Of a DNA stretch of 64,000 nt, positions 16,126 through 54,799 are shown piece by piece. The notes under the pieces are model-generated. The model saw nothing but the letters and a program-made list of their open reading frames with translations. It made no database searches and was not told the DNA's origin. The position numbers and the translations under genes were made by a program. Source of the stretch: Cyanidioschyzon merolae (Eukaryota); assembly GCA_000091205.1 (NCBI GenBank), contig AP006493.2; one strand, given 5' to 3'. Within the stretch, counting starts at the first letter, position 1; every line of letters starts with the position of its first letter.

Positions 16126-16623
16126 GCGTCGGCTCGAGGGTTCGCCTTCCAATGCCCTGCGTGTGGCTCCAGGTTGGAATCCTGCACGCTATGGTAACGC
16201 TCTGCACAGGAGCTCCATAAATGTGCTATCTTGTACATATATAGGTAGTTTCAAGCCAGTGCATGATGCAGATGCCATGGACATACACCGCGCTGCGGTG
16301 TCGGCGCTTTGCGGACACCAGCGGTTCGCGCCAGATTGCAACAGTTGATTTCCCTTCGTTAAGTAAGGGAATTGCCTTATGCGCAGCGTAGATATTTTCG
16401 CCGCCGTTGGCGCACGACGGGCACACGAGACCCTATCCATCTCCCCGCAGAGATTGAGGATTATCGGAGAGGCCTCTCCAGACGTTTTGGATTCTGTTAA
16501 ACAACGAAGCGGCTTGAGCTGCTGGAGCGCTTACTCAACTGACTATTGGTTACTTTCTGGTTAAGTTTGGGTATTATTTAACTTATCTGTGGGAGCAAAC
16601 AAGAGACACGAGTTGCGCGTCGC

Positions 16624-22184: not shown

Positions 22185-22325
22185 GATTTGAGCATGCTGC
22201 ACCTGAGGGAAGGAGATATGTGGATGCATGTAGGATAGATCTGGGTAACGATATCGGTTATTTTACGAACCCTTGTTCGAGGGCGTCGCGAATCATCCTG
22301 ATTCCGGTGACGTAGCGAATTTTAG
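22185..22325. repeat. Dispersed repeat family B, copy 2
   Basis: See copy 1 at ~15110-15260. Confidence 0.55.
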
Positions 22326-29242: not shown

Positions 29243-31299
29243 GAGTCTAGCGCACTCTTTGTAGCGTGCTCAAACTCCATAGAGCCTGGCTGTTTCAAGA
29301 GCGTCGGCGAGTTCGTATTGGAGCTGCTTCAGGCAACGGAAGCAGGAGCGAATCTATTCTCGCACAGTGCAAAGTGCCGCTTTGTGAGAAGCGTACGAGA
29401 GAATCGTCGACGCTGTGCGCGGTGGGCGCCACTGGATAGGGCGAACAGATGATTTGGTCTTGTCAGAGGCAGTTCTCGAACGTCAAGATCGTCGTCACTG
29501 ATGTAGACGAGCAATATCCCGACAGATACAATACCAGCGCAAGACGATGATGTCTAGTGGGAGACGATATCGGGTGACGTCATCATAAACTTGTTTAAAA
29601 GAGGTTGTCGTGCACGAAGCGTTGTTCATACAGCATCTGTGCGAGACGTCCTACTGTGGCGCTCTGCAGAGCACAGGTGCACTTGTACCGTCGTTGTGTT
29701 TCCAGCAGCGAATTCCGGAGCACTTGTGCCAGCACACTCGTTTTACTTCTTGTTCAGTTCTCCTACCGACATTCAAGAGAAGGAATGTCTCCGATAGATT
29801 GGAGAGAGGTCACGGAAGGATTTGATGCTGTTCGAGTTTGCTTGGGAGAAACGATCACCTCTGTTCAAGTCGGTTATTCTACGTACAACGCATGGTTCCA
29901 TTACCATTCATGAAGTTCTTATGCTGAACCGCGTATGCCCGAGTCAGAACCTATCAAAGACCGTCGACATGGCTGTCTTGTGGTCAATATAATTCGCCGC
30001 ATGCGTTCACTAAGAAATACGATCAAAGAAGGCACAGGATGTGAAGTTTCCGTTCCGTTGATGCAAACGTCGATGAAGAGCCGCGGGTTGTCGACGAATC
30101 AAGCACGATTGTATGAAATACCGTCGCGCGTTGAACAGTACTCTGTCGATCTCGTCATGAGACAGGAACGCTTATTACAGAAGGAACAGCTTCCGTTTCA
30201 CTCGATGGGACTTTATCCAGAAGAAATGGTAGACATGGACATGGGTACTCAAAGAGCGGCAGCACGCTGCTCGAAGAGACGAGGCAATCGAGGATTCCGA
30301 CGACATCTGCACGAGCTGCGATGCGATCGTGTGGTCGCCTCCAAGTCGCCAAAAGAACAGGATTGATCGAGGCCTTGTCGTTCCTCGAAGAACTCCTCGT
30401 GGCATGCCCTTCCCATATTCTTCCGTCTAGCGCTTAGACATCGTCGCGTTCCATCACTAAAAAACGATAAGAGAGCAAGCGACTGAGATTGACGCTGAGC
30501 TGCGCTTTTTGCTAGTTTATGTTCCCTGGTTTATTCGAGTCGGAGCTTGTTTTAGGTTGCCATTCACCATTTCATGATCATTTTTTGATAACACCTCTAC
30601 GCAGACCAGGGACCGTCGACTGCGCTTTTGATGGCAAAGCGCTGTGAGGCATGCTCACTTGCAACTAGCTTCAGATTCCACCGCCCATACGTGCCCTCGG
30701 AGCATCTAGTTATGCTCCGCGTCCTATCATGCACCTTGCCTGCGGCGAGCGTCCGCAACAGCGCCCACTGCGCCACTGCGGATGCAACACGAAGATAGAA
30801 CGCCTTTGCCATACCACGAAGGGCGTCGACTCGAGTTTTTACGCTCATGGTCGATTAGAAAAGTCGTTCGCATTTGTGACATGGCTCTTCGACAACTCGT
30901 TTCTAAACAATAAAATCGTTCAGTTTTGCTACCAGTGTGCTGCTCTATCGCTCCTTTGTCCGTTACGGGATAGGGCGGAAAGCCACGCTTCAGTACAGGG
31001 GCCTCCTCGCGATGCAGAAGATACAGAAAATATGCGTTAGGGAGCGAAGATCCATGCATAGAAAAGGCGAGTTTTCTTGCCACCGTCCACCGACGTTCGC
31101 CTGAATCACTAGGAAAAACAGTACCTCGTATAGCGACCGTGTTCATGGCATCCTGCTGAGTCAATGAAAAGGCGATAGAGCTGGCCTCTGCGAGCAAGTA
31201 TGAAGCACTCGAGCAAGTTGTGAAGAGCAGTTGTGGCGTTCGTTCAAGTTTCTCACTTATTTTGTATGAACCGATCAACAGGACCTGTTTTCAAACGCT

Positions 31300-31560
31300 C
31301 AAGGCAATGGAGAGAAGGATTTCGTCGTGAGCATGGATCCCCGTTTGATTGATACCGTGGCAGTTGCCGTCCTTCGAGATCAAGAAGACGGAGTCGCCGG
31401 CCTGAACGGGATGCAGATGAAGCCACTGGAGTTTCCCAAGGCCGGGGATCATCGGGATTCGCGCATCGCCGACTCTATGAAGCATATCCAAACGTCGAAT
31501 GAGGGCGTCAGACCCATGTCGACGCTCCCAACACGATATAGACCAACGGGACACGCTCTG
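31300..31560. repeat. Dispersed repeat family C, copy 1 (inverted copy at ~48410-48650)
   Basis: The spurious ORF peptides LRDQEDGVAGLNGMQMKPL and LSQEDGAKDLNRMQMNPL share about 75% nucleotide identity over >200 bp in opposite orientations. Confidence 0.55.
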
Positions 31561-32940
31561 TACGATTCAGAGAGTACGCAAGGGTCCAAAAGCTTCAAGC
31601 GGCCTATCTTTGGCAGGAATGTATCAGAACGTGCTGGGGTTGACAGCGGTTTCGGTCGCGCGTACACAAGAAGCAAGGTGATCGACGACTTGTTTTGCGG
31701 GCTGGATGAGAATATGGCCGAGAATCCGGATCGCTTTGTGGTAGCGTCTGGAGCTGAATGTGCCGCATCCGGCAAATTCTGGCCACTTGCTCTTTCTCGA
31801 AGTGAGTGTAGAAACGTTCTGGTGCCTATGCCGTACAGTTCCCATTGATTAGTCCAAGACGAGATACACGCATCTTGAGCACGTGTCCATTCTGAAACTG
31901 GTAGAAAAGATGAGAATGAAACAGCGACGGATGCACGAGATGATGCAAGGTAAACCCACCGAACGTCATTTAAAGAGACAATGGAAGCCAGGAGGCTCAC
32001 AACGGTATATACAATCACCAAAAAGAAACACGAGCACTTTCTGCACCAAGAGATGAACGTCTTGATCAACATCCGCAAATTTCTGTTGCCTCCGGAGTGT
32101 CCAGCGGTTTCGTATCTCGCACGAAGTCTCTCACAACTCATTTATTATGCTGTGTGCCTCCATGGTGCTGAAATGCTGCAGACTCGTGATGGAAAGAAAC
32201 CGCACGCCAGGAGAAAGTGGATTTGAATGACCCTGGACAAAGGCACTTGTTTGGTACGATTCACGAATCCCGAACGGCTTACGCGCTGGGATGTACAGAC
32301 AGGGAACGATCCTCGTAAGCATTTTTTCAGAAGATAACGGGATTTTGCTACGCGACGTTACTATGGATATCGCCATCGGAGAGCAGCCTGCGAGAAACGG
32401 AACACCGGACGGGTAGTGTCAAGGCTCCCGACGCGAACAGCCTCTGACGTCCGAACAGACGCCTTCTGAGATCGAGGCCTGGCGTCGGACCGAGTGCATC
32501 GCCAACGAGTACCTGGTCGTCACCCGCAAGTGAGGGCATCGAATACCACTATGGATCTCAGTGTTTAGATTGGTAGTCTGCTGGCCTACCGAGCGTTTTC
32601 AGTAGCGCTCGAATTTGCACCCGGAGGAGCTCACAAGCTGAACCACTGCCAGAGCGTCACTGCGGCAAGCACGGCCACTGACGGGTCGAGCGCACGCGTG
32701 CAGCTTGCTCTCACAGGCAAGCGACTGCTCCTTTTCTACAAACATTACACTCGGTTTGAATTTTAAGCGGGAGAGAAGAGCTTTGAGAGCGAAGACGTGC
32801 AAGCTGTAGCCGCTGGAGCAGCTGCATATCCGAGCGTTACGCTTTCCGTGGGCACTGCAGAAGCAGGCGCCCTTGCCAAGCGTCGATGCCGGCGCTCAGC
32901 GCTTCGAGCGCTAGCATTATCACCTTCCAGAAGCAAAACT

Positions 32941-33777
32941 TCAGAGTTTATCGCTAGAAAATGGTCGCGGCATGGTTTTCCATTCATCGTTCTCAAAGGG
33001 AATCTGCAGCTCCTCGCACAGCCGCTTCCATCGATCCGTTGTACCCTCAAAAACAAACGTTACCGGAAGGACGCAAACCCCACTACCTCCGACTCGACGC
33101 AGCTGCTTCATAGCTGAGTATATCTGCGTCTTCTTCACTACCAGTCCGATGGCGTACATGCCGTGGGCGACTCCTCGAGGTGGAATCACGGTCGATATGG
33201 TCGGTCCGTCGAGGCCTCGTAGATCCGTGAACTCGCCAAGACGTCGAGCAACGTCACCAGCGCTTTCACCGCGTATGTTCGCAATGACATTGTAGTGTTG
33301 CTGCGCAGTGAAATGGGCATCCATCCGTTCGATCAGCTCTCGCACGAAATCTCGAAGACGCTCGGCAAATGGATATCGAGTTTGATCCGCTGCTAGGCGG
33401 GAACGATTGCCGATAAGTTGCATTTCCGATTGAAGTATCGTGCCGCCTGGTATTTCTTTGAGATTATTTTCTCGGAGCGTCACGCCGCTGCTGATGAGAT
33501 CAATGATGCAATCGGCGGTGCCAAGCTGGGTAGCGGCCTCTAACGCACCATCCTGGTACAGGAGTCGATAGTTCCGGATGGCGTGAGCTGCCAGGAAAAT
33601 TTCCGACTGGTTCGGGAACTTGGTCACGATGCGCAAGGGTTGTGAGCGAGATTCTGTAAAGCGGCGAAAATCTTCAATGTTGTGGATATCGGTCCAGAGA
33701 ATTGGCACTCCCAGACCCAAACGACAGATACCGAAGCCGAGACTGTCGTGGACAATGACGACATCCGTAGAAGTTCC
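32941..33777 (-). CDS. HISG: ATP phosphoribosyltransferase HisG (long form), exon 2
   Basis: DVVIVHDSLGFGICRLGLGVP and DGALEAATQLGTADCIIDLISSGVTLRENNLKEIPGGTILQSE match the HisG catalytic core. The C-terminus carries the regulatory domain of the long form. Exon 2 begins after a CAG acceptor in phase 0 (...ttcag|GGA ACT TCT ACG GAT GTC). Confidence 0.8.
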   Translation of the reverse strand, partial: GTSTDVVIVHDSLGFGICRLGLGVPILWTDIHNIEDFRRFTESRSQPLRIVTKFPNQSEIFLAAHAIRNYRLLYQDGALEAATQLGTADCIIDLISSGVTLRENNLKEIPGGTILQSEMQLIGNRSRLAADQTRYPFAERLRDFVRELIERMDAHFTAQQHYNVIANIRGESAGDVARRLGEFTDLRGLDGPTISTVIPPRGVAHGMYAIGLVVKKTQIYSAMKQLRRVGGSGVCVLPVTFVFEGTTDRWKRLCEELQIPFENDEWKTMPRPFSSDKL

Positions 33778-35086
33778 CTGAATAGTTCGAATCATGAGCA
33801 GGTTAGTTCGTGTTCTTTCTTGCGCATCCACAGCGTTGAATATCCATATGGAGCGAACAGTTGCTCTAGGTTGAGGCAACGGTAACAGCGGCATCGCATG
33901 CGATCCCAAGGGCATCAAGAGGACCGGTCACGCTCATGGAAATGGTATCTCAAGTCCAGTACAGACTGCCCGGGTAAATTGATGCATATCTCCAGGGTCT
34001 GGATACGGAGTCGATGCATCTGCATCAGATGTTCGGAGCCACGGCATCTCTAGTCCAATCCGGACCGTCCATGGCCGCGGAGACGTACCACCGGCGTATG
34101 GATCCGGAAGCGACGCAACTGCATCTGATGTTCGCAGCAGCAGCAGCAGCAGCAGCAGCAGCGCCTTTGGTCCACTGCTATCCGTTCAGGTCCCTAGAGA
34201 CATCAATCTAGGCTCTGCGTTACCAAGTCGCATGTGAGTGGGAATCGAGATACCATGAACCGTACAACGCGCGACACTCGTAGCGATCACTCGCCGCATG
34301 GCGTGTACTCGGGCAGCGACGAATCATCTCCGTTGATCCGCATTCTAGACCAGTTCATCGACAGGAGCATCTGCACCAGTAACCAACGCGCGCTCCAGTT
34401 CAAGGTATGCACCATGTCGAGCGCGTGTGCGTGCGCCGAGTCACCGCCACCAGCAAACACGCTCCACCGCACAAGACTCACTGCGTAAGAAGGCATTGTA
34501 TTCCATAACACTGCTTGATGCTTTTCGCTCTGACGCCATGGATCAAAGCTTCGAAGCTATCATGTGTCCTATCTGCGGGAGCATCTCGCACTGCATACGG
34601 AGTGATGCTTTGAGCACCTGTTCTCGCATGCAAGTGATTCAATATAGAGCAGCGTTGCTGACAGACGCAGAGCCGGACAGCACGCCCCGTCTACAAAAGC
34701 ATTTGCGCCCATCCGAGCGCTTCCACTCTTGATATCCGACTCGGGTACTGCAGCCAAAATGCACGTCACCGTTACCTCACTACAGGATCATTCTAGAGCG
34801 ATGTCGACAGGCTGGTACTCGTACCACGATCAGCTACCGCTATCTCGCCTGGTGTAGTATCCAAAGCAAAACGACTGATTGGCATGCTACGCGCCTGTCG
34901 CTTCGAGTTTCTCTGGGGATACAGCTTGAGCACCAGCGCCTCAGAGCCGAGCATGCCCATTTGCAGGCATGATCGAGTGCACAGGTGCCTCAATGAATCC
35001 CCGTAGCACACGCAGGTGCCGAGCAACCGATCATGGAGAACGTAGGTCTCGGAACTTGCTCCAGCCTACGCCTTGCACAAACTTAC
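33778..35086 (-). other. Spliceosomal intron of HisG (~1309 bp, GTAAGT...CAG, phase 0), containing a (GCA)10 microsatellite
   Basis: The exon 1 reading frame ends ...DLVAEYN followed by GTAAGT (minus strand, 35086..35081). Frame continuity resumes after CAG at 33780..33778 with GTSTDVVIVHDSLGFG, which is the conserved HisG segment that normally follows directly. Confidence 0.65.
34134..34164. repeat. (GCA)n trinucleotide microsatellite, about 10 units
   Basis: 'gcagcagcagcagcagcagcagcagcagcagc' read directly; it lies inside the HisG intron. Confidence 0.9.
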
Positions 35087-35548
35087 GTTATATTCCGCAA
35101 CGAGATCATAACCAGCAACCCCAATATCCAAGGTACCATCCTTAACTTTACGAACAATATCCGCTGGGCGTTGAAGCCAGAGCTCAACCTCGGGAAAGTG
35201 CTTGATGCTACCCACGTATTGGCGCGGGTTGCGCAGGTCCACTTCGAGGCCGCAGCTATTCAGCAGCTCAACCGCAGCTTGGTGGATCTCGCCTTTCGAG
35301 GGAATCGCGAGTCGAATCGAGTCACGAGCCTCCGCATCCGCACTCAAGCTCGTAGTTTCATTGCCTAGGTTAGCACTTGCAGCGACCTTGCAACTGCGAA
35401 GCTCACGAACGCCCTGCGCTCGCCGCACTCGCAGGCAGCGACGCGTTTCGCAGCTACCGCCACGGAGCCTAACACTCGTGACAATGGTGCTTATCCGTTG
35501 CCGCTCCTTGATGCTCGAGCGTGAGCACTGCACAACAAACGCCATCAC
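35087..35548 (-). CDS. HISG: ATP phosphoribosyltransferase HisG, exon 1 (includes a ~75-aa Ser/Arg-rich N-terminal presequence)
   Basis: IRLAIPSKGEIHQAAVELLNSCGLEV...WLQRPADIVRKVKDGTLDIGVAGYDLVAEYN matches the HisG N-terminus (LRIALPSKGRL...GxDLL). The upstream MMAFVVQCSRSSIKERQRISTIVTSVRLRGG... resembles an organellar transit peptide. Confidence 0.8.
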
Positions 35549-35794
35549 ACTCCTTTACGAACTTAATCGACCAAGGAGGCTGCGGATCAACAAGCACAGG
35601 TTGATGACTAGTCCTATGAGCGAAGCGGGGGCGCTCGTTCGTCTCCAATGTACACGCGGCCCGGGACCGGCAGCGCTGGGCGCGCATCGCATTCGCTTCG
35701 GCCGGCTATTCGCTGGTGCAGTCGCTTCGCGAATAGCAGACCGCTTTCAAAGGCAGCAAGGGCTCCGACATCACCTGTGCAGCGTCAAATAAGG

Positions 35795-37120
35795 AGACGA
35801 CACTGCTTCCTCCAATGCTGATTTTTAAATCTTTTCCAGAGTTCCTACGCTGTACAGCACCGACGTCCGACGTGCCGCTATGAAGGATAACCGATTTGTA
35901 CGTACTACGTATCGGATGCTCGCGGTGGTTGTTTCGGATTGGTTCATTCGACGCGTCGCCGCCAGCATTCGTTACCATACGAAAATCGTGATGATTCGAA
36001 ATGGGCTCGAGAAACGCACCCTAAAATAACCGATATCAGTATCTAGTGCATACAGGCGAGCCTGCGCTATCCTCCGTGACGTATTGCGCAGGTGTTCGAA
36101 TGCTGGGCTTCGAGGCACCTCGCGGGCGCAGCGTCTCGTGCGGAGAGCTCCACGGCGAGGGAGCCTTGACGTCGTCCCTTATTGGCGTGCTCGTGAGCGC
36201 ATGCCAAAAGCCCGCTCAACCTGTCACGTCAAGTTATCGAGGCCGTCCAAAATTCATCGCCGCCTCGGTTTGTGGTCATCGACGGCATGGCGTGCAGCAA
36301 CCGCTTGATAACGGTTGCGGGAAACGATCCCCAGAGGCTCCCTTGACTTCTGACTGCAGCGGAGAACGCGTATTGGACGCACACTCGAGTCGCCGCAGCG
36401 CTCGCTTCGAGTGCAGCGCGCGTCACCGCTTTGCGAGACGAAAGCGCATTCCGTCCGAGAGTTCTCGGCTTGATCTCCAGCCCGGGGACTTCCCTCTGGC
36501 TCTTGCTCCATCGAAGCGAGCAACGCCTCTCGCAAGCTCCCTATCGAACCTGTGAGCAAACGCGTGCGACAGCAGCGGGCAGAGTGAGTACTCGCCGAGT
36601 GGATCACCCGCACGGAGCCTGTGATCGCTGGGTACACCACCAGCCCCGGTAGCAGAGGAGCGCATCGACGGGAGCCTTCCTGTATCGGTCCATGGCATGC
36701 GCTGAGCAATGGGGCAAGCGCTCGTGAACCAGAGCGTCGCCCGTCGGACAAGACGGGGGCCTCGACGGACATAGCTGCACCTCTGACAGCAGCCCCAAAT
36801 CAGAGTTGCATTGAGCGCACCGGGGCTGTCTCCAGGAAGCAATGGAAACTGCGAGCGAAGCGCGAATCACAGCATTCGCTCGCTCATGGTCTGCTCCGAT
36901 AGCAGCCGGAGGCATCGAAATCGGGACTCGCACGCACTGCCATCAGCATCCTTCGACTGCTGAAGAGAGGCATGGTGGGAAATGAGCGACCGGCGTATTT
37001 GAACCTGGAGATAAGCGAGAGGCGAAGGAAGCACTCGGAGATAGAGCCAGCCACGTCCTATGCTGCCTACTGTGGGAACAGACCAAACCTTTGTCGTGCA
37101 TGAACGAGTCAGAGGATTCG
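35795..37120. repeat. Repeat A, copy 1: ~1.33 kb element, about 99% identical to copy 2 at ~41980-43304 in direct orientation
   Basis: The ORF-track peptides at 36046..36555 and 42231..42740 are near-identical, as are the pairs 36254..36772/42439..42957, 36423..36842/42608..43027 and 36604..36933/42789..43118. The nucleotide boundaries are 'agacgacactgcttcctccaatgctg' on the left and 'gagtcagaggattc' on the right. No recognisable protein domain is present. Confidence 0.9.
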
Positions 37121-37471
37121 TCCCAATTCAATCTGGTACGCATGCAAACGTTCCGCAAACTCGACGCGACATGCCTCGATTCCGTCCCGCGCTCAACGCC
37201 GCCTACTAGGCGCGTCATTCGACCATGCCGTCCAGAGCGCAATCCTGTGGCCAGCGCGAGCGTTCTAGATATATTCACTGAGGGTGTCGGTCCGCGCCAC
37301 TCGTAAACGCCGTTGCGACCCTTGTCCTGGCAGTATCTCAGCGTTTTGCTGCAAATACGAACAGCTTGAGACTTTCGACGCCGGAGCAGAACGAACTAGG
37401 CGTCCAACAAAGTCGATCGGTGGTGCCCAGATCACGGCGAGTTCAGCGCTGCAACAGCTTGCCCGCAAACC

Positions 37472-38560
37472 ATGCTCGGCGGTTTCGGTGACTTTTTCTT
37501 GCTTGTGGGTGTGACCCTAGGATCCATCCTGCTTAACCTCTTCTTTCTCATTCTGTCCCCGGTGATTGTGCTGTACGTAAAATACGGGGGCGTTGGGAAC
37601 CGTCTGAAGCGGCAGATGCCACTACCACGGGTTCCGCGGTGCGTTTTCATCACCGGCGCGTCATCCGGTGTTGGCGAGGCGCTCGCCTACGAGTATTGCA
37701 AGCGAGCGCGCAAGCAACAGGTTCAGGACCTTGTGCTTTATCTGACTGGTCGAAATGCGACACGGCTCGACCAGGTGTGTGAACGGTGTCGGGAACTCGG
37801 GGCGAGTAAAGTGCATGCCCTAGTCGTGGACGTTGCCGACGAGGCAGCGATGCGTGAGGCGATCACCAAAGCCGACCAAGAACGCCCACTTGATCTCGTC
37901 ATCGCAAACGCCGGTGTATCCGTGACGAATACAGGACTCATGGAGGAAAGCAAGTCAGGCGCTACTGGCTATGAGAGGTCCAAGAAGCTACTTGACGTGA
38001 ACATATACGGTGCCCTGTACACGATCTGGCCGGCGCTGGACTGCATGATCGCACGTCAGCGCGGAGGCCAAATCGCGATTAACGCAAGCATTGCGTCGTA
38101 CATTGCGGGTCCGCTGAATATGTCATACTCTGCGAGCAAAGCCGCAGTTCGATTCTACGGAGAGTCATTGCGCACCGCGATGGCACCATTGGGCATCCGA
38201 GTGAATACGATCCTGCTGGGATTCGTTGAGTCGCGGATGACGGAGCCGTTGAAGAATAGACATGGCCGTTTGCCCTTCGCCAAAAGCGCTGAAGAAGCGG
38301 CTACATCGCTTGCGAATCAAATAGAGCGTGATGTGGGCGTCATCGAATACCCTGCATGGCCATTCGGTGTGCTCGGTGAATGGCTGAATGCCGCCCCGCC
38401 CCTCGTCCGAGAATGGATATGGAGTATGGTGATGGGCCGTATGGTGACGCGCGCGGAACGGAAATTGAGAAAGCGTCAAGCAGCAGATGTGAACATCGCC
38501 GACAGCGGAACCTCGACCAAGTACGCGATCTTGACACGCCTTGTGGAGAAGCTTATCTAA
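37472..38560 (+). CDS. Short-chain dehydrogenase/reductase (SDR) with an N-terminal membrane anchor
   Basis: VFITGASSGVGEALAYEY is a TGxxxGxG NAD(P)-binding motif. NAG is present, and the catalytic YSASKAAV (YxxxK) is preceded by Ser. A hydrophobic N-terminus is present. Confidence 0.85.
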   Translation: MLGGFGDFFLLVGVTLGSILLNLFFLILSPVIVLYVKYGGVGNRLKRQMPLPRVPRCVFITGASSGVGEALAYEYCKRARKQQVQDLVLYLTGRNATRLDQVCERCRELGASKVHALVVDVADEAAMREAITKADQERPLDLVIANAGVSVTNTGLMEESKSGATGYERSKKLLDVNIYGALYTIWPALDCMIARQRGGQIAINASIASYIAGPLNMSYSASKAAVRFYGESLRTAMAPLGIRVNTILLGFVESRMTEPLKNRHGRLPFAKSAEEAATSLANQIERDVGVIEYPAWPFGVLGEWLNAAPPLVREWIWSMVMGRMVTRAERKLRKRQAADVNIADSGTSTKYAILTRLVEKLI

Positions 38561-39934
38561 ATGCACAGATCAGCATCCTTGACGTGAGCAGGTCGAGCGA
38601 CAACAGCGTTTCCGGGAAAGACGTCCACGGCGATGCGCGAATTCGGCACTGCGCGACCCGGCGGTGATCGCTGCCGGACACGTGTCCACGTATCCGTGGC
38701 TTGCGTGCGCGCGATGCGTGCATCGGGAGCGCTTCCCGTATTGTTCGCGACAAGTTTTTCGACATTGCCATGCGCATGGATACATGCATCATTGCAACTG
38801 CGCATGCCTTCCATGGAGCGGTTACGAGGCGGGACTTGATGGACGTCAGATCATAGACTACGGTTGCGAGGCTGGATCGTGGCGAGAGCGCAAGCGCTTG
38901 TAAGCGTGATGAGATAAATTCAAGTGGTATTGCGTCTGGGCACTTTGGATTCCTCGATAAGCACTGCAGTCAGCGCGATGCTATGTGAACTGGGCCCCCA
39001 TCAAGGGAATTCTCTGACGGTGAGGTCATTTTTATGAAAAGCATCTCTGCACGGTTCTCTTCTCGCGAGCGCTCCTAGGCGTGGATCTGTGCGGTTCCAT
39101 CGAGGTGGCACTGGAACCGTGTTGTTTGCGTTGAAATTTCGGTCGCGGTCAATCCGACAAAAGAACTGCTTTAGGATATCGGTCTGAGCACCGCAGCACT
39201 GAGCATTGACGGTCGTCGGGCGCGAACTTACATGCAGGCCTTCGATTTTTCGATGATGCTCGCATTGGATATGCAGGTAACGAGCCCAAAAGTGGTCTAA
39301 ATAGCGCTGCGGATTTTGCGGGAACTGCAGCGGAAAGCTGCGCAGTGCACGCGGACTCGTGAAAGCCACCTCGTGCCTAATGCTCAAGCCAGCACGCTTT
39401 TTCTTGGAAAAAAGTGCCCGCGTTGCGACTGTTTACCAGAATCGTATCGACGGGCTTTCATCAAGTGTCTGGGATCATTCCGGGCGGCAGCATGCATTTG
39501 GCTGCTTCGAAAGTACTTTTCGTGATACGCGACTACATTCCCATGAACCAAAACCCCCAGCAAGTTCATTCTTTGCGTCACGTTACAGTGCCTGCAGTCA
39601 CAATAATGCCTGAGATCATTGCCACAGTGCTCCGCGATGCATTTTTCTGTGGCGAGTACGCGCCCCGGCAGGCGTCGCAAGTTCCAGTGGCACTCTCGGC
39701 TAGCGTTGTCGACCACCGGCATGCGCTAGACAGCCCCAGGACGGGATCGCCAACCGCTGACGGTTCCGATTCCGAAACATCTGCAGCGATTCCAGGCATA
39801 TTTCATCTACAAGAACGTATCGCCAAGGCGTGCTAGCCCAGTGCCTTCACTCAACGAGGACGAATTATTGTCCAGGATACATCTGGTTTCGTCATGCTTT
39901 CATCTGTACAATCGCTGGTATGCGGGAGACGCTC

Positions 39935-41101
39935 CTACACCGCAGTGTCCTCCTGCATAGCGGAAACATCCAGTCGCATGTTCACTTCCTTCGCGAGCCC
40001 CGTGCTCTCAGGTACGCCAGGCCCGGTGGCAGGTGTGTGTTCGCTTTGGGCATCGGCTTCCGCCGATGCAGTATCAAATTTGGTGCTGGTACTTGGTTGC
40101 TGTTGCCTGTACCGCTGATATAGAAATACACCTACGACGCATACGGCGTAACCGCTGAGGTTCAGCCACGAAATGCGGTTCCGAAACGTTATCCAAGAGA
40201 CGCCGATCACCACGGCCGTCTTTACCGTTCCAAGCACGGTGGAGGTTAGGGCACTACTGCGATCTATGAGCAAGATATCCCCAAAATTCAGCCCAACAGC
40301 GAGCAGGCCACCGGCAATAAGAATCAAAATCGTTTCGATCACGTACAGCGCATCTTTGAGCAGCGCATCGTGACGCATTCGGGTCGTCCCGATGGCTAAC
40401 GCTGCTGGCAGAAGCGTTACAAAAGAGATCGGCGCTTGATAATAGAGAATTTGTATTGGACTAAGGCCCACGGCACTATGCAGTTTGCCCTCGGCACCAT
40501 ACCGAAGAAGCAGCTGCTGTTCAATCAAACGCGCGGAGCCGCATAATACGGCCAGTAATTCTAGCGCGAAACCAACTGGATGAAAGTTCATTTCACCAAC
40601 CGTCGCGACCGCTAAACCGACACTAATGATGACGACGATAGCCAACAAGACACCAGAACGCTGCTCTAGTCCAGCGGCGAGTCCGAAGAGCAAAACCGAT
40701 GCCGGCATGCTGCTCTTAATCATTTCCACGAACGAGGCTTCCAGGAAAAGGTAGCCGGCATTGGTGAACACGATATCAAGCGCGACAAAAAGACCGACAA
40801 GCAGCAAGCGAGGTTTGCGGTACGGCTTGTCGATCGTCGGTCGCGAGCTTGGTACGCACCACATATAGAATTGAGTCGCGAGGGAAAGAAAGAGCATATG
40901 GAAACAGGTGACCACGAGAGGGTACGGGAAGCCCCAGCCGAGGCATCGGCCAGCCGTCCGTGAGGTCTGCCGCTCCTCGGCGGCACAGTTTGTAAACAAC
41001 CACTTGTTGTAGATCACTAGAGAAGTTGAAAACGAGTAAGCAAGCACCACTGCTTTCAGCAGCTGTACAGCTTGCTCACGTCGTGGAGGCGTCGTCATCA
41101 C
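39935..41101 (-). CDS. SLC35 / triose-phosphate-transporter (TPT) family nucleotide-sugar or phosphate transporter (DMT superfamily)
   Basis: About 10 TM helices. The N-terminal KAVVLAYSFSTSLVIYNKWLF is typical of the TPT/SLC35 domain, and there is a duplicated EamA-like half. Confidence 0.75.
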   Translation of the reverse strand: MMTTPPRREQAVQLLKAVVLAYSFSTSLVIYNKWLFTNCAAEERQTSRTAGRCLGWGFPYPLVVTCFHMLFLSLATQFYMWCVPSSRPTIDKPYRKPRLLLVGLFVALDIVFTNAGYLFLEASFVEMIKSSMPASVLLFGLAAGLEQRSGVLLAIVVIISVGLAVATVGEMNFHPVGFALELLAVLCGSARLIEQQLLLRYGAEGKLHSAVGLSPIQILYYQAPISFVTLLPAALAIGTTRMRHDALLKDALYVIETILILIAGGLLAVGLNFGDILLIDRSSALTSTVLGTVKTAVVIGVSWITFRNRISWLNLSGYAVCVVGVFLYQRYRQQQPSTSTKFDTASAEADAQSEHTPATGPGVPESTGLAKEVNMRLDVSAMQEDTAV

Positions 41102-41534
41102 TAGTCGCCCATGCGTACACGCAATCCTAAGCAGCGTGCGCGCAAACGGAAACCGCTCGCGATAGATGCGGACGTTGTGCGAGCACCTCTAAAACCAAAC
41201 CAGGTTGCACACTCAAAGTGTGCCTGCACCGCCTTGCATAAACTGCCTGCAAGCGCCACCCAAAGCTACAGTGGCTGTCGGGGCGACGCCCTGCCGCTCT
41301 CGCTCCCTGTACGGCGCCGCGGAGTGCAACAGTCCAATAGGCCTCCAACGTTTACGCGCTACTGGAGAGCGTCTTCCCGTTGCAGAGCAAATTTTGAAAC
41401 AGCTTCCCGCCCTGCTGCTGTATCAACCTCGCTTAAGAGCAACTGCTTTGTGCTACGAAGAATGCAGGACGTATACGTCTCCACAGCAAAACCGACGCAT
41501 AGCGCACATGCGGAGCGTCCAGCACAGTCGGCAA

Positions 41535-41805
41535 ATTCTTTTTCATGGACAAAACGTGTCCATGGGCCAGCGGTCTCCGATTGTGCGCTTTTTCCTTTCT
41601 TTTCTTTTTTGTCAGCGTGCGGTGAAGTATCCATCAAACCGCCTGCTTCCAAGTTACATTATCCATACTTCTTCTCGGATATTCTGGTCGTTTGGTTCGT
41701 TCTATTGTGTGCCGAGCGCCTGCTTTGTTGGCCCGCAATGCCGCCTATAGCGCCGGTGCGGTCTCTGCGCCGAGGCAGAACACGGCGTTGCCGTACCACA
41801 CAGAG
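41535..41805. repeat. Dispersed repeat family D, copy 2 (directly abutting repeat A copy 2)
   Basis: See copy 1; it aligns to ~15850-16125 at about 85% identity in the same orientation. Confidence 0.7.
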
Positions 41806-41979
41806 GACATCGGTTCGGAAGCAGTCGGTCAATGCGTGACGCTTTCGGGTCGTGTGCAAGCAACGAGCGCACCTGCGCTCTTTGGAGCGCATGCTTGCTG
41901 CCTGGTGCGGGATTCAAGGATCGATGGATTCGAGGCAGCACCCGACTCGAATACGCTGGACAAAGGTTGGATGTATGGA

Positions 41980-43304
41980 AGACGACACTGCTTCCTCCAA
42001 TGCTGCTTTTTAAATCTTTTCCAGAGTTCCTACGCTGTACAGCACCGACGTCCGACGTGCCACTATGAAGGATAACCGATTTGTACGTACTACGTATCGG
42101 ATGCTCGCGGTGGTTGTTTCGGATTGGTTCATTCGACGCGTCGCCGCCAGCATTCGTTACCATACGAAAATCGTGATGATTCGAAATGGGCTCGAGAAAC
42201 GCACCCTAAAATAATCGATATCAGTATCCAATGCATACAGGCGAGCCTGCGCTATCCTCCGTGACGTATTGCGCAGGTGTTCGATTGCTGGGCTTCGAGG
42301 CACCTCGCGGGTGCAGCGTCTCGTGCGCAGAGCTCCACGGCGAGGGAGCCTTGACGTCGTCCCTTATTGGCGTGCTCGTGAGCGCATGCCAAAAGCCCGC
42401 TCAACCTGTCACGTCAAGTTATCGAGGCCGTCCAAAATTCATCGCCGCCTCGGTTTGTGGTCATCGACGGCATGGCGTGCAGCAACCGCTTGATAACGGT
42501 TGCGGGAAACGATCCCCAGAGGCTCCCTTGACTTCTGACTGCAGCGGAGAACGCGTATTGGACGCACACTCGAGTCGTCGCAGCGATCGCTTCGAGTGCA
42601 GCGCGCGTCACCGCTTTGCGAGACGAAAGCGCATTCCGTCCGAGAGTTCTCGGCTTGATCTCCAGCCCGGGGACTTCCCTCTGGCTCTTGCTCCATCGAA
42701 GCGAGCAACGCCTCTCGCAAGCTCCCTATCGAACCTGTGAGCAAACGCGTGCGACAGCAGCGGGCAGAGTGAGTACTCGCCGAGTGGATCACCCGCACGG
42801 AGCCTGTGATCGCTGGGTACACCACCAGCCCCGGTAGCAGAGGAGCGCATCGACGGGAGCCTTCCTGTATCGGTCCATGGCATGCGCTGAGCAATGGGGC
42901 AAGCGCTCGTGAACCAGAGCGTCGCCCGTCGGACAAGACGGGGGCCTCGACGGACATAGCTGCACCTCTGACAGCAGCCCCAAATCAGAGTTGCATTGAG
43001 CGCACCGGGGCTGTCTCCAGGAAGCAATGGAAACTGCGAGCGAAGCGCGAATCACAGCATTCGCTCGCTCATGGTCTGCTCCGATAGCAGCCGGAGGCAT
43101 CGAAATCGGGACTCGCACGCACTGCCATCAGCATCCTTCGACTGCTGAAGAGAGGCATGGTGGGAAATGAGCGACCGGCGTATTTGAACCTGGAGATAAG
43201 CGAGAGGCGAAGGAAGCACTCGGAGATAGAGCCAGCCACGTCCTATGCTGCCTACTGTGGGAACAGACCAAACCTTTGTCGTGTATGAACGAGTCAGAGG
43301 ATTC
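41980..43304. repeat. Repeat A, copy 2 (~1.33 kb, about 99% identical to copy 1)
   Basis: See copy 1. Only a handful of substitutions differ, for example R/C and G/A in the 169-aa ORF peptides. Confidence 0.9.
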
Positions 43305-44854
43305 CGTCAATGGTATTATGACTTGCATGTATGCGTGCATGCAAATAGTCTGATACCAGAGAAGCCGCCATCTTCTCTCTCTAAGTGCGACGACGCTCCG
43401 CTCATTTCTAGAGCAGAATACCCGTCAGGAATGGATGCTCGACCGATCTCGCGATAATCCAGGTGCTGCACCTCTGTCGGGCTCACGCATATGCTTCTAA
43501 TGCAGGCACAGGGCAGCGACTGAAGCGCTTCGCCAGACGCTGGTTGTGCGCTTGCCAGGTCACGCACACTCGTCTCATACGGTGCGAACTCCATGCATTC
43601 ATCGAGCTTTCCCCGGTGTACCCAAATGCTGCTGGTGGCCACACAAGAGACCTCGGGTTCACCATGAGCGTTTCAACGTGTCTCGCACTCCATACTGGTG
43701 CTCTCCTCGGAATTCGAGCTGAGATGTATCCTGTGAGGATTCAGTTGCGGCACCTTACGCGACCACCGATGAATACCTGGTGCTTGCGTAATGCCGTGTG
43801 CGGGCGCTGACACGAACTGCAGTATGCTTCTGTGCGAGGCCAGCATGTGCCGTATTCCTGGAATCCAACAGGATGCGTAGCCAGGATACACTCATGTGCT
43901 ATGCTTTCGTGCCGAAAAGCTTCCCATCGTATATGTGTACCGCTCGCAGTGCCGATCACAAGCGCAGTGCTGTGGCGACAAGGGATCAAACATCGTGCCG
44001 TACTGTCGCGGTTTCGCCTCTGATGTGAACGGCGTTTCCGACTCAACGAGCCGCCGCCAGTCTCCCGTGAGCCGCTGCCTTTCTTCATGCGGTCGAGAGC
44101 CAGTCGCGATCAAGGCTCTTTGCGTACATCGAGGCAATGCCTGATTCTTTTGCAAAAATGCAGTGTGTCGATGACATGCTGGGGCTTCCAACCGCCACCT
44201 ACCGCGTCGGTGTCTGAGTATGTATGTGGTCAGTGATGCAGAAAACGCTCTGCGACACTAGAGCGTAATGATACATACACTTACAGACGCCTCCAGTCCT
44301 TCTTTGACCCGCTGACTGCTATAGATTTTGTTTTATCCAGGCAGAGAACGACCCTGAGAGGCTGCCACACCAAGTCGCATAGCGACAGCTTCCCGGTTCT
44401 CGCCTCGAGCAGTACACTTTACATGATATGGATGGCGGCGTTGATGTCCCGGTTCACGTACTCCTTGCGTTTATTGCCTGGAGTGGAACTCGCCTTTGCA
44501 AGGATTGTTTGACCTCGTGCACTCTGCGCCACTACAAGCTCATCATTATCCTGCCGTGCTGGCACCGTTTCTCGCCTATCTCCTCTCTCTTTTTCTTCGT
44601 CTCCTTCGCTCGATCATCGGTGAGAAGAGGATTTTTCCGTTTTTGTCGAACCCGGCGATGACGGGCATCTAGGATCTTCCACTTCTATGCCCATCGCTTT
44701 CCCTTAGACTTTATATTTCTTCAAATGAACGTACATCGAACCCATCTACTATAAACCGTGAAAAAGCAGTTGGTTACTGTATTCTAGAGGTGGAACACCA
44801 TTGCGTTGAAAGACTAAACGTTAGCCGTCAGGCACTTTCAGTTGAGCGCGCGCG

Positions 44855-47095
44855 TTGCACTCGAACGAATCTTATTCCATTTTAGGTAGCTGCAGCTGCT
44901 GCGGTATCTGTGCAGGCTTTAGAAGCCCGAAGTCCACAAAGGTTTATCAAGGAATGTTGAGGAAAGTGCGCGAAGAGCTTGCATACGATCAAGCGCTGTT
45001 CGCACTGCAGGCTTGGCAGAGCGGGTCCCGCTGGTGGCAGCGCGCTTCTGCAACGCCTTTTACGGAGTGTTCGCGGTGGCCCGGCGGGGGAACGTCGCAC
45101 GCTGGGCAAGCCGCCGTCAAAGTCCGCAAAAGACAGAGAATCTCTGTGCCAAAGTGGCAATGTGCAGCAAAGCGCTCCGTTGAACACGTTTGTCGTGAGT
45201 GTGGCCACACGGAGGCCCGGCGCTACGGGCGTTGTCCGTGCTGCCAGAGCTGGGACAGCATGGTGGAACAGCCTCGCAGGCGGCGTGAAGCTGGCGGTTT
45301 ACAACGCCCACGCGACGATTTCGCCAACCAAAGAAGACACAAGCTCTGGAGCGGTGATGCAAATCTTTGGTCTGGTGACAGCGACCAGCTCAATGACTGG
45401 TTGCAGGGCGCGGGCACCGCGCCGTTGCCACTTGGTATCCTACGGCGCGGGCTAGGTCCAGGAACTGAACACAAGGTTGCGAAGGCGTCCGCATTGGACG
45501 GCAGTTCGAGCGGTAATGCATCGGGGAAGCTTCCGCACGCTGCATCCATGGAATCTAACAGAGCGCAACCAGTTGAGGTTCACAGGTTACTGACCTGCTC
45601 GGCCGAGTTTAATCGAGTGACTGGCGGAGGCATTGTTCCTGGTTCACTGCTCCTGATCGGCGGGGAGCCCGGCAACGGAAAGAGCACTCTTCTGTTGCAG
45701 ATTGCAGGTGATGTGGCCAGCAGCGGCTGCCGCGTCCTCTATGTTTCTGCGGAGGAATCTGTAGAACAGGTAAGTTCGCGTGCCGCCCGTTTGTTTGGAC
45801 TCATGGAACCCCGTCAAGAGGAATCGACGGAAAGGCGTCAAAGCCTCGAGAGAAATCTTCTCATCATGCACGAGGCCTGCTTGGAGGATATTCTCGACAT
45901 TGTTGAAGAGATCCAGGCGGGGCGAGAAAACGCTCCACCAAACAGCGCTCCAAGAGCGACAACGGCGAGCGCATCGACAACACCTACGGCGACTGTGCCC
46001 AGCACAGGTGCTCCGTCGAAAGCAGTCGGCGCTGGACGCAAAGACGCCTCCACGGTGGACAACACTGATGCCCAGTCGCCGCTGGGGTTGCTCATTATCG
46101 ATTCCATTCAGACTGTGTATACGCAGGAGAATGAGCAAGAATCAGCAGCCCCGGGCAGTATCGTGCAGGTGCGGCACTGCACGAACCGTCTGCTTGGACT
46201 CGCAAAGCGGCAACAACAACGGCTAAGAGAGCCGTGGCAGCGCACTGCGATTATGCTGATTGGTCACGTCACCAAATCAGGTGACTTGGCTGGACCCAAA
46301 CTGCTCGAGCACATGGTCGACGTGGTCCTCTACCTCGAATCTGAGCAGGGTCTCTTCCAGCATCGCATTCTGCGCTGTACAAAAAACCGCTTCGGACCGA
46401 CGGATATCGGCATCTTTGATCTCACCTCACGGGGTCTCGTAGATGTTCCGAATCCAAGCCTGCTGTACTTCCAGGCTGCCGAGTCGAGTCTGATGCATGA
46501 CAGTGATGGAGCCGCGAAAGCGCCGAACAACCCATTCCACACCTACGCCCGTGAATCCACTGACGGCACCGCATTCTCCATGGTCGTCGATGGAACCCGC
46601 GCTTTCCTCGTCGAAATCCAGGCCTTGGTTGCAAAGACCTCGCTCACCCAGCCCCGTCGGACGAGCAACGGTTTCGATCTTTCTCGTCTTTACGTTATTC
46701 TGGCGGTTTTATCAAAACGAGCTCGACTGCGACTCGAGACACACGATGTCTATATGAACGTGGTAGGTGGAGCCCGCATCCAAGACCCCGCTGCAGATAT
46801 GGCGGCAGCGGTGGCACTTGCATCCTCATTACTCGCGAGGGCGCCTCGGCCGGATACAGCATTCATTGGAGAGCTCGGCCTGCAGGGTGAAGTTCGCCCG
46901 GTACCCCGTCTCGACCTGCGTCTACGGGATATCGCGCGACTCGGATTCCGCTTCTGTGTTTGCAGCGATCGTTTGAGTTCAAGACAGGAGACTGCTGCTC
47001 GGGAGACGGGCCTCCAAGTCATTCGATGCCGTACTATTTCCCAGGTGCTGCAATTCGGCATTCCCGAAGAGATAGCACCCACGGAGCAGCACTGA
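44855..47095 (+). CDS. radA: DNA repair protein RadA/Sms (bacterial type, likely organelle-targeted), with low-complexity insertions
   Basis: The C4 zinc finger is CRECGHTEARRYGRCPCCQSW. The RecA-like Walker A is GGIVPGSLLLIGGEPGNGKSTLLLQIA. The KNRFG motif is KNRFGPTDIGIFDLTSRGL. A Lon-protease-like C-terminal domain follows. The N-terminal extension before the zinc finger is consistent with a targeting peptide. Confidence 0.85.
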   Translation: MHSNESYSILGSCSCCGICAGFRSPKSTKVYQGMLRKVREELAYDQALFALQAWQSGSRWWQRASATPFTECSRWPGGGTSHAGQAAVKVRKRQRISVPKWQCAAKRSVEHVCRECGHTEARRYGRCPCCQSWDSMVEQPRRRREAGGLQRPRDDFANQRRHKLWSGDANLWSGDSDQLNDWLQGAGTAPLPLGILRRGLGPGTEHKVAKASALDGSSSGNASGKLPHAASMESNRAQPVEVHRLLTCSAEFNRVTGGGIVPGSLLLIGGEPGNGKSTLLLQIAGDVASSGCRVLYVSAEESVEQVSSRAARLFGLMEPRQEESTERRQSLERNLLIMHEACLEDILDIVEEIQAGRENAPPNSAPRATTASASTTPTATVPSTGAPSKAVGAGRKDASTVDNTDAQSPLGLLIIDSIQTVYTQENEQESAAPGSIVQVRHCTNRLLGLAKRQQQRLREPWQRTAIMLIGHVTKSGDLAGPKLLEHMVDVVLYLESEQGLFQHRILRCTKNRFGPTDIGIFDLTSRGLVDVPNPSLLYFQAAESSLMHDSDGAAKAPNNPFHTYARESTDGTAFSMVVDGTRAFLVEIQALVAKTSLTQPRRTSNGFDLSRLYVILAVLSKRARLRLETHDVYMNVVGGARIQDPAADMAAAVALASSLLARAPRPDTAFIGELGLQGEVRPVPRLDLRLRDIARLGFRFCVCSDRLSSRQETAARETGLQVIRCRTISQVLQFGIPEEIAPTEQH

Positions 47096-48409
47096 TTGAT
47101 CGAGCTGCTTCGGGGTGTGGGTGCGGGTCCCGATGCATTGTACGCATCATGAAAACGCATCCAGACGCTCTGCACTGAGATGGAACCAGAGTCGCACGTC
47201 GCAAGGCATCGAAGGGCGTACCAGACGCTGGCGACGCTGGTGAACGTTGCCGACGCTGTCACGTGCGCTGGGCGCCAGGAGACTGCGTTTGCGCTATTCG
47301 GTATCGACAGCGGTCGTCTGCAGCGCTCAGCACCCCAAAACGTCAATACAGCAGGCGTTTAGGATCTTGAGTTGCTTAGTAGATGGTACTGATTGTGAGG
47401 TGGCGGTGTCCGCGGGTGCGTTTACAACCGCGGCTCCGTGCACGCATCCTCGTGGCTGAGTTTACGTGCCGTTTCTATATGTGCAGTACGCGCGTCGCAA
47501 ATATCCCGGCTGCGGTCATTGCATACTCATGGATATCGTGTCTGGGAGCAGCACGGGCAGCTACCAAATGCCGAAGAAAACTACTTCCATTGTGTAAACA
47601 TGTATATGTGTGTATGCGGCGCTCCAGTGTGTCAGAAATGCTGACCGTTCCACACCAGTTGCTTCGTCGAGGCGGGAATCCAGTCACGTTTCTCCTGGTC
47701 GCTGCTTTCGTTCCTTCCGAAAAGTTGCAATGTTTCCGCACAATGCCTTCGCCGAGTACGAAACGATTCCCATGGAATTCCGCTCGATAGAAAGCCGTTG
47801 GACGCTCAGAAAGCATGCCGCATATCAGGGTATTGACCGAGACGGTCAAGTGCCGTTGCAAAAAGTGTTTGCGGGCGTTGCTGCAGGTGGAATCACGCGA
47901 GAACAAGCCTCTCAACTTCGACTGACTTGCCGTCTGATATTCGATCGGCTCCATGTGCGCGCTTCAGTGCATGTGGCTCTGATACACGCTCTTGGTCTCA
48001 AGCTGTCCTCCCAAGAACACTTGCTCGTGATGCGCGTATACCCTCTTGAACGCATCGATGGGAATCGTGTAGAATCGATTCCTGCACTCCCTGTCTGCTC
48101 AAGGCGACGCCCTGGGATTGCGGTATTCGCACGTCAATGCACATTCACGGCCATAGGCTATCAAGAATCGATGCGACTTGTCGGTCACTTCCTTTTCTGA
48201 CTCTTTGAATACGTTTGCGAATGTATGCCCCTTGCCTCTGTGCAAGAAAAACAGCGGCGACTTTTACGCTATCTCATGTGCTCCTGTCAGGTGTCGTCCG
48301 CATGGACGATTTGGACGCTCATCTAATTTCTGCATGAATCACAAAAACATCCACATTTTCTCGATAGGTTGCAAAACGCATCGAGATGAATCATGACGCC
48401 GTCATCGCC

Positions 48410-48650
48410 TTTGTTGGTATACCCGCGTTGCGCCGATCATGTCCGACTCTGTTGGTACTACCGAGCCCTGACAAAGCTGAGCGGATTCATCTGCATTCTG
48501 TTCAGGTCCTTGGCGCCGTCCTCTTGACTCAGCGGCCTGGCGACGGCCAGATGCCCCGCAACCCGAAATCCGCACCCCACTACGAAATCGTTCACTGCAT
48601 CCACCAGGAGTCGTTGAAAAAAAATCACCGCGCACTGAGCAGACGTACAG
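48410..48650. repeat. Dispersed repeat family C, copy 2 (inverted relative to copy 1)
   Basis: See copy 1 at ~31300-31560. Confidence 0.55.
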
Positions 48651-54500: not shown

Positions 54501-54799
54501 AGCCGATGGCGGGCGGCCGGTCCAAAAACGCTGGGAGGCGTCTGCGTATGGGTATTCATTTACCCTCCAAGGTCGTAGTACATTTAATGTTTCACGGACA
54601 TGTGCAGTTTCCGTCCGTGCTGCAGACTGGTGCAGCTTCCCGCCACCTGCCCCATGCTGGAAAGCATTCGTTACGCTGCGACGCGCCAGCCGCGCAGCGT
54701 CGCCGGATATTCCAGAGCCGCCGCGACCTCGCGCTTGAGAGCGCACGTTCCGTTAGAAACGGGGTTTTTCGTTTTGGAGCGGGTGCAGAGGCCGTAGTC

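Follow-up and report, generated by a model that had tools for sequence, protein, structure and literature searches.

Two nearly identical direct repeats, here called A1 and A2, lie in a 64,000 nt stretch of the Cyanidioschyzon merolae genome (contig AP006493.2 of assembly GCA_000091205.1; this whole stretch is referred to as the window), where they bracket exactly two intact host genes, identified by Pfam searches of the open reading frames (ORFs) as an SDR gene and an SLC35/TPT-type transporter gene. In a self-BLAST of the window, the two copies align plus/plus at 99.1% identity over 1329 columns, with 11 mismatches and 1 gap, and their starts are 6185 nt apart. A MAFFT alignment places the substitutions at repeat positions 27, 83, 236, 250, 252, 306, 333, 349, 599, 607, and 1305, and the single indel at the extreme 3' edge of the repeat. 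A first-pass annotation, made from the sequence alone, had described a direct-repeat pair at about 99% identity around these two genes; both descriptions hold, and its coordinates were right to within 2 to 4 nt. The remaining repeats visible to BLAST in the window are 77% to 83% identical, in agreement with its estimate of 75% to 85%. The locus is made up as follows:

32941-35548, minus strand: HisG (ATP phosphoribosyltransferase; Pfam), the left neighbour, present as two ORFs (35066-35548 and 32941-33918)
35795-37122, plus strand: repeat copy A1, the block of 99% identity, in the divergent HisG(-)/SDR(+) spacer (self-BLAST, MAFFT)
37472-38560, plus strand: SDR gene, an exact match to BAM80596.1, annotated as similar to 11-beta-hydroxysteroid dehydrogenase (Pfam adh_short, E=4e-33; synteny)
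39935-41101, minus strand: TPT/SLC35-type transporter gene (Pfam PF03151, E=1e-28; synteny)
41980-43308, plus strand: repeat copy A2, the block of 99% identity, in the divergent TPT(-)/RadA(+) spacer (self-BLAST, MAFFT)
44954-47095, plus strand: RadA/Sms-like gene (Pfam), the right neighbour, for which related contigs have gene calls of 713 aa

The arrangement HisG-A-SDR-TPT-A-RadA is real, because metagenome contigs of four separate samples (L011/L017/L019, L018, L022, and L058) span it. These contigs are about 99.4% identical to the window, and the strains thus lie about 0.6% from 10D. Contigs assembled from short-read metagenomes mostly break within the A repeats.

The order of the genes is shared with relatives of C. 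merolae. The window is nuclear DNA of C. merolae strain 10D, and the protein of a phosphatidylserine decarboxylase (PSD) gene near the SDR gene is, like that of the SDR gene itself, an exact match to a 10D protein (BAM80594.1). The closest SDR homologues outside C. merolae come from Cyanidiococcus yangmingshanensis (74% identity) and from an ENA contig of a more distant cyanidialean (63%). In Cyanidiococcus the order is PSD-HisG(-)-SDR(+)-TPT(-)-RadA(+), with only 340 and 384 bp in the two spacers that correspond to the repeat sites, and the HisG-SDR-TPT order is also present in the more distant genome. No copy of the repeat family described below was detected with the family HMM in either of the two 21 kb relative loci. 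Because both relatives keep the same order without the repeats, the SDR and TPT genes are, judging by this synteny, ancestral residents of the locus that were not captured, and A1 and A2 are therefore additions of the C. merolae lineage to two neighbouring divergent spacers.

A dispersed family with transposase and Fanzor remnants

A1 and A2 are members of a dispersed family, whose diverged copies were detected with translated and profile searches, these being more sensitive than BLASTN. Using nhmmer, a family HMM, and translated searches, we identified seven full-length copies of about 1.35 to 1.36 kb each on both strands of the window. Besides A1 and A2, these are:

10137-11347, plus strand: old copy c10, with an internal deletion (family HMM, nhmmer)
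14072-15416, minus strand: old copy c15 (family HMM, nhmmer)
21135-22485, minus strand: old copy c22 (family HMM, nhmmer)
57091-58443, plus strand: old copy c57 (family HMM, nhmmer)
60739-62126, plus strand: old copy c60, the most diverged (family HMM)

The seven copies occupy about 9.3 kb, or about 14% of the 64 kb, and at least six further copies exist elsewhere. Those outside the window were recovered as two additional genomic copies (motif scan, JGI metagenome contigs) and as five ORF clusters (protein search with the family consensus). Since about every second long spacer in the window contains a copy, it is unremarkable that two members of the family bracket genes. The sole unusual feature of the A1/A2 pair is its identity of 98% to 99%, whereas every other pair within the family is 45% to 60% identical. 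The first-pass annotation had allowed that the bracketing would be coincidental if the repeat turned out to be a high-copy element inserted many times in the same orientation. The seven copies in 64 kb, on both strands, agree with this in part, and the 99% identity alone stays exceptional.

A second near-identical pair was observed elsewhere in the genome, at L039 2237-3629 and L030 1126-2518 (JGI contigs Ga0080006_1249343 and JGI20133J14441_1008680), with 2 differences in 1393 nt between copies read from different samples. The members of this pair are inverted relative to each other with a spacer of 1.87 kb, are identical up to the element ends, and have unrelated flanks. They lie between putative parvulin-like and VPS29-like genes, as judged by eye from ORF translations.

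The local density of the A family is at odds with the reported inventory of C. merolae, which lists eight class II elements and a transposon content of 0.7% (Nozaki 2007, PMC1955436). Either the window is a hot spot for the family, or the family has been overlooked since single copies give no domain match, which suggests that the published transposon inventory is incomplete. A 2024 paper on dispersed repeats (PMC11050394) contains nothing specific to the A family.

A simple majority consensus built from eight family copies recovers domains that the single copies have lost. Its front part encodes, in one frame, two helix-turn-helix (HTH) domains followed by a DDE domain, with matches to Pfam DDE_3 (E=1.5e-8, 35 bits, cut-off 28.6), HTH_33, and HTH_Tnp_Tc3_2, and this frame is colinear with the Mariner transposase of the element PUl-1 (BLASTP, E=4e-6). 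The last ~400 nt encode, in a different frame, a Fanzor/TnpB C-terminus (...VIMGYGTGRGSGGG...VDEHLTTVKCHRC...FRLCMKC...NRDSHAAINIL). The published C-terminal signature of these proteins, [TS]-[TS]-x-x-[C4 zinc finger]-x(5,50)-RD (Bao & Jurka 2013, PMC3627910), is present in the consensus as TTVKCHRC...CMKC...NRDSHAAINIL. The consensus scores just below the cut-off for Pfam Cas12f1-like_TNB (E=3e-5, 24.5 bits against 26.3), and its Fanzor part matches the Fanzor1 proteins of CMe-1 (E=9e-6), CVu-1 (5e-5), and PUl-1 (1e-6). It also matches P0158, a Fanzor-like ORF that is intact and at least 418 aa long (BLASTP, E=9e-31, 43% identity), with identity climbing to about three quarters across the first ~60 residues. 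This ORF is located at 376-1632 of L068 (JGI 3300000575), a contig labelled BRINE from an unrelated metagenome.

Complete Fanzor1 ORFs have a catalytic Asp (RuvC-I) 125 to 275 residues ahead of the zinc finger (Bao & Jurka 2013, PMC3627910). The consensus has no such full ORF with an upstream catalytic Asp; it contains only the ~135 C-terminal residues of Fanzor1, joined to about the first 250 residues of the transposase. Because this is the layout that a deletion beginning about two thirds into the transposase and ending about four fifths into the Fanzor would leave, we read the family as a non-autonomous, internally deleted derivative of a Mariner-plus-Fanzor1 element, which would then have multiplied. 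These remnants support the earlier suggestion that the repeat originated as a non-autonomous mobile element. The accompanying remark, that no coding domain can be recognised in the repeat, is right for individual copies, since single copies, including the ORFs and frame translations of A1 and A2, give no Pfam match, and wrong for the family consensus with its DDE_3 domain. The combination of a DDE/D transposase with an N-terminal HTH, expected from IS630/Tc1-mariner ancestry, was likewise found in the consensus only. No window copy retains the full TnpB signature, and a regular-expression search of the six-frame translation of the window found no intact one. The 172 aa ORF of the repeat was rejected as a real gene, having no homologue beyond its own 90% cluster and no codon periodicity. 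A PDB sequence search with the consensus peptides returned nothing meaningful, and Rfam and tRNA scans of the window returned nothing.

The element PUl-1 of Pythium ultimum (Bao & Jurka 2013, PMC3627910) resembles the A family in carrying, on one strand, a Mariner transposase with a Fanzor1 gene behind it, and in its short inverted ends, and the consensus is colinear with both PUl-1 proteins at the E values given above. However, PUl-1 is 3.6 kb long and the A unit 1.36 kb; roughly the final third of the transposase is missing from the A unit, as is the first ~80% of the Fanzor, every A-family copy is full of stops, and there is no recognisable TA duplication. A1 and A2 are dead, internally deleted elements of Tc1/mariner type with a Fanzor1 remnant, a class known from the same survey (Bao & Jurka 2013, PMC3627910).

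The family has also to be distinguished from CMe-1A and TE-N2_CMe, which occur in the same genome and the same spacers, with one fragment abutting A2, and whose Fanzor C-terminal motifs are related to those of the A consensus (E=9e-6). In contrast to the A family, CMe-1A has no inverted ends and no transposase, and CMe-1 is without the intact C4 zinc-ribbon pattern of the A family. A nhmmer search with the published CMe-1A consensus gave no match to the A-family consensus at E<=10, whereas it recovers 11 fragments elsewhere in the window. The A family thus appears distinct from the published C. merolae Fanzor family, although it may already be catalogued in Repbase. Derived from a Mariner element and missed by standard domain searches, it adds the remnants of a second Fanzor lineage beside CMe-1A.

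Element ends and the origin of the 99% identity

We predicted the full extent of the two elements by comparing them with the rest of the family and with L039, whose element is complete:

35769-37145, plus strand: predicted complete A1 element, about 1377 nt, with degenerate terminal inverted repeats
41955-43331, plus strand: predicted complete A2 element, whose margins outside the block of 99% identity are compatible with decayed termini

The block of 99% identity starts 25 to 26 nt inside the left element end and stops 23 nt short of the right end, and in the margins outside it A1 and A2 match in just 12 of 30 (left) and 13 of 26 (right) aligned columns. It would therefore be a high-identity block nested 23 to 26 nt inside older, diverged homology, a description with which the ends of A2 are compatible. 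Ends of the family are short, degenerate, and, in several copies, mirror-symmetric, beginning with CAG; the left and right ends of L039 share CAGnCTAAAAYGGARC. The left margin of A1 (CAGCGTCAAAT) equals the reverse-complemented right end of c57 over 11 of 11 nt (p=0.0003 to 0.0006) and is clearly a family terminus. A TA target-site duplication was looked for at A1, A2, the L039 pair, and the other copies, and none was found. Decay of the sites could explain this at the old copies, but not easily at the L039 pair.

The differences between A1 and A2 are unevenly distributed. Ten of the 11 substitutions fall within the first 607 nt, and the longest run without a mismatch is longer than expected from a random distribution (permutation, p=0.0033):

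36402-37098, plus strand: tract of 698 nt without differences between A1 and A2 (equivalent to 42587-43283 in A2; MAFFT, permutation)

In wild strains, the same alleles occur at both copies. Repeat position 27, which is linked to unique flanking sequence within the k-mer of any assembler, is A or C both at A1 (5 and 3 distinct contigs, respectively) and at A2 (4 and 8), and at position 1305, a C/T variant, 10D has the C in A1 and another strain (L046) has it in A2. Both of the features looked for as marks of concerted evolution, non-uniform divergence and identical polymorphisms at the two paralogues, are therefore present. In addition, the A block has a GC content of 58%, compared with 47% to 51% in six of the seven other copies compared (the exception being L039 with 55.6%), and, with the family majority as the reference, its ratio of AT-to-GC over GC-to-AT changes is 1.65, compared with 0.70 to 0.94 in the others. 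It is also slightly further from the family than the other copies are from each other. We infer that the GC enrichment results from GC-biased conversion, and that A2 inserted independently long ago and was not copied in part from A1 at a later time.

The patchy mismatches, shared polymorphisms, and GC enrichment fit gene conversion better than fresh transposition, and ongoing conversion between two resident copies is probably what keeps A1 and A2 about 99% identical. The history of the locus would then have begun with a non-autonomous unit of ~1.36 to 1.38 kb, produced by internal deletion of a Mariner-plus-Fanzor1 element, of which two units inserted, in the C. merolae lineage, into the adjacent divergent spacers flanking the ancestral SDR-TPT pair. 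All other copies of the family would have drifted to 45% to 60% pairwise identity, while repeated conversion between A1 and A2, in the same orientation and 6.2 kb apart, would have held these two at ~99%. Conversion would reach to ~25 nt from each element end and not into the final ~25 nt of homology.

Several observations weigh against this reading. The margins of A2 have p=0.2 each and score equal to genuine old termini, most of which do no better than background in a leave-one-out test of terminal inverted repeats; the test is thus without power, and A2 could be a partial copy at a naive site. Unconverted margins of ~25 nt are also narrower than might be expected of homology-dependent recombination. 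Other neighbouring copies, both direct (c15/c22 and c57/c60) and inverted (c10/c15), are unhomogenised, and proximity alone is therefore insufficient for conversion. The GC enrichment may not be specific to conversion, because L039 shows it too although its pair looks like a whole-element duplication. Finally, A1 equals A2 within the spanning metagenome contigs, probably as the product of a collapsed assembly node; within-strain phasing is unreliable in these contigs beyond ~30 nt from the flank. Identity of A1 and A2 within a contig was consequently rejected as evidence for concerted evolution, since a collapsed graph node gives the same outcome.

Among the other accounts of the identity, a one-off partial duplication is a serious rival but the less likely course. 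Here a break in the TPT-RadA spacer would have been filled, through template-switching or repair synthesis, with a copy of the interior of A1 (1328 nt, without the outer ends), so that A2 never had transposon ends, and later conversion would have produced the patchiness. The left margin of A1 alone is clearly a terminus, those of A2 are not demonstrably element ends, short shared bases are present at the junctions (GGA left, GTC..AAT right), and the 7 nt ATGTATG flanks A2 on both sides (noted by eye; rough chance expectation ~0.04), all in keeping with such a copy. However, such a copy would need to have begun and ended no more than ~25 nt from the two termini of an element 1377 nt long, a coincidence that we judge very unlikely, and neither the AT-to-GC excess nor the extra divergence of the A lineage is explained; the A2 margins, moreover, do no worse in the scoring than true old ends of the family. 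A young pair, as the first-pass annotation had it, would result if a non-autonomous element that can still move had inserted twice in recent times, or had made one recent jump over a short distance, and the L039/L030 copies, identical to their ends as transposition would leave them, together with the intact related Fanzor ORF in public data, are consistent with recent mobility. Cut-and-paste transposition carries the ends along, yet those of A1 and A2 differ at half or more of the aligned columns in the outer 23 to 26 nt, compared with 0.8% in the interior, which makes a fresh insertion very unlikely. The A-specific ORF has no other copy above 90% among 5.8 billion proteins, in every contig examined it is confined to the sites of A1 and A2, and the search for a TA target duplication found none. 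With the block ending ~25 nt inside both termini and the signatures of conversion described above, the youth of the pair through recent insertion is not borne out.

Selection could instead maintain the identity, if the block had been co-opted as a bidirectional promoter module or a non-coding RNA for both divergent gene pairs. Each copy does sit in a divergent promoter region, and the two point the same way with respect to the plus-strand gene that follows; the family also has an unusually uniform length despite ~45% divergence. We give this account little credence, however: there is no Rfam match, codon periodicity, or conserved ORF, the distances to the downstream genes are very unequal (350 and ~1650 nt), and alleles common to A1 and A2 are not predicted by it. 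It is extremely improbable that cassette capture, a composite transposon, or single-crossover integration of a circle brought the SDR-TPT pair in with the repeats. One-crossover integration of a circle does yield the layout A-x-A, and contigs with x-A-x junctions exist (L023 and L024), but the latter are as long as one turn of the assembly-graph loop (6176 versus 6185 nt), and Cyanidiococcus, at 74% protein identity, and the more distant relative have the same gene order and orientation without the repeat. The first-pass annotation had raised capture as one explanation and proposed to compare the orthologous locus, and that comparison refutes it. The bracketed genes are present at the element-free orthologous site, unlike those of a composite transposon. 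Nor are A1 and A2 long terminal repeats (LTRs), because the repeat carries DNA-transposon remnants and the interval holds host genes; as an LTR retrotransposon the structure fails in that its internal region consists of two conserved host genes and no target duplication was found. That the pair is an artefact of the reference assembly, also considered by the first-pass annotation, has a practically negligible chance, given that 11 sites distinguish A1 from A2 and that all four repeat junctions recur in independent assemblies, in addition to the four samples whose contigs span the whole structure.

Under gene conversion, A1 and A2 behave as other dispersed, gene-bracketing repeats do in ectopic conversion, and nothing about them is mechanistically surprising. 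A pair of HERV15 proviruses, 10 kb repeats around an 800 kb interval, flanks the AZFa interval of the human Y chromosome, where deletions are documented. Like A1 and A2, the HERV15 copies are dead elements that flank host genes in direct orientation; sequence passes between them by gene conversion, as it probably does here, and they can give rise to deletion of the genes they enclose. HERV15 differs in being retroviral, in its far larger scale, and in its documented deletions, no reliable deletion allele having been found for A1/A2. The layout also resembles a bacterial composite transposon (IS-gene-IS), in that two IS630-related copies bracket genes. In contrast to such a transposon, the cargo of A1/A2 is ancestral, the copies are non-autonomous with decayed ends, and there is no evidence that the unit moves.

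C. merolae is the textbook "simplest" photosynthetic eukaryote, and its sexual cycle was described only recently. If conversion is correct, A1/A2 offers a compact and clear-cut case of ectopic gene conversion arising naturally in this alga, and polymorphisms common to both copies in hot-spring populations may bear on the extent of its recombination. The pair is also a possible source of off-target recombination in gene targeting near HisG, SDR, TPT, and RadA.

Rearranged contigs and other features of the window

Contigs corresponding to deleted and circular forms of the locus are present in public assemblies. In the deleted form, RadA is joined to HisG via a single repeat (L021, from 3300027863, and L050, an 85 kb contig from 3300005573); these two contigs come from different projects and have a distinctive flanking haplotype in common on both sides. 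The circle-like or tandem-like form, SDR-A-TPT flank, occurs in L023 and L024. We did not accept L021 and L050 as proof of a deletion allele, as the sample of L050 also has an SDR-TPT contig ending in the repeat (L067), nor L023 and L024 as proof of circles, their length being that of one assembly-graph loop. Such contigs are probably repeat-collapse artefacts. Repeats of 1.3 kb trap short-read assembly and so produce false-deletion and false-circle contigs.

The k=31 assembly of one run (Logan SRR29605817_11095; L024/L062) contains a contig with the order TPT-SDR-repeat-TPT flank that is unbroken at both repeat borders; such continuity would not be expected had the run covered the chromosomal junctions equally. 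Chimeric joins through repeats in other contigs also speak against taking the deleted and circle-like forms as real alleles. L057 (2734-3874) departs from the window sequence 52 nt past the SDR stop and enters a ribosomal protein S17e locus, and L026 (1915-4916) switches to a HAD-hydrolase locus where the CMe-1A 5' fragment lies; the two are probably such joins.

Deletion or circularisation of the SDR-TPT segment mediated by the repeats is plausible. It is rather improbable that A1 and A2 actively recombine in natural Cyanidioschyzon populations to give strains without SDR-TPT and circular or tandem forms of 6.2 kb. The haplotype common to L021 and L050 and the unbroken k=31 contig would be in line with it. 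If they did recombine in this way, dead transposon copies would drive a reversible polymorphism in the presence or absence of the SDR-TPT pair.

The spacers of the window also contain 11 CMe-1A fragments, found by nhmmer with the published consensus (PMC3627910):

1-102, 15856-16193, 30586-30838, 31311-32103, 41548-41819, 44239-44822, 47754-48599, 54199-54549, 62607-62804, and 62814-63761: CMe-1A fragments (nhmmer)
41548-41819, plus strand: CMe-1A 5'-end fragment directly left of A2, also matched by TE-N2_CMe (nhmmer, E=9e-26)
44239-44822, minus strand: two CMe-1A fragments (consensus 2840-3123 and 782-1069) in the TPT-RadA spacer (nhmmer)

The piece at 62814-63761 is well preserved (E=5e-215), and the repeats of 75% to 85% identity in the first-pass annotation are the fragment at 41548-41819 and its relatives. 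A CMe-1A remnant is overlapped, on the other strand, by an ORF of 230 aa (31449-32141, minus strand), which is therefore perhaps no gene. The 253 interspersed elements described as "WSV486-like" (Nozaki 2007, PMC1955436) are probably the CMe-1A family, because both papers describe multi-copy elements of ~3 kb and white spot syndrome virus (WSSV) carries Fanzor1.

Further observations concern the host genes. The two HisG ORFs are ~1.15 kb apart; the gene call in Cyanidiococcus takes up 2272 nt to encode 423 aa, and two ORFs are seen in the more distant relative as well. This layout suggests that HisG is split by a conserved long intron. The C. merolae genome is famous for its near-absence of introns. 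RadA and the HAT-repeat gene downstream of it share a strand in C. merolae but lie on opposite strands in Cyanidiococcus (window 44954-52010 versus L027 13658-18337), suggesting a local inversion, along with ~3 kb of additional spacer in which a CMe-1A remnant lies. Near the start of the window there is a perfect tandem array of period 8 (117-212), and an NFACT-like gene contains an internal duplication of 55 nt with 96% identity (26735-26876).

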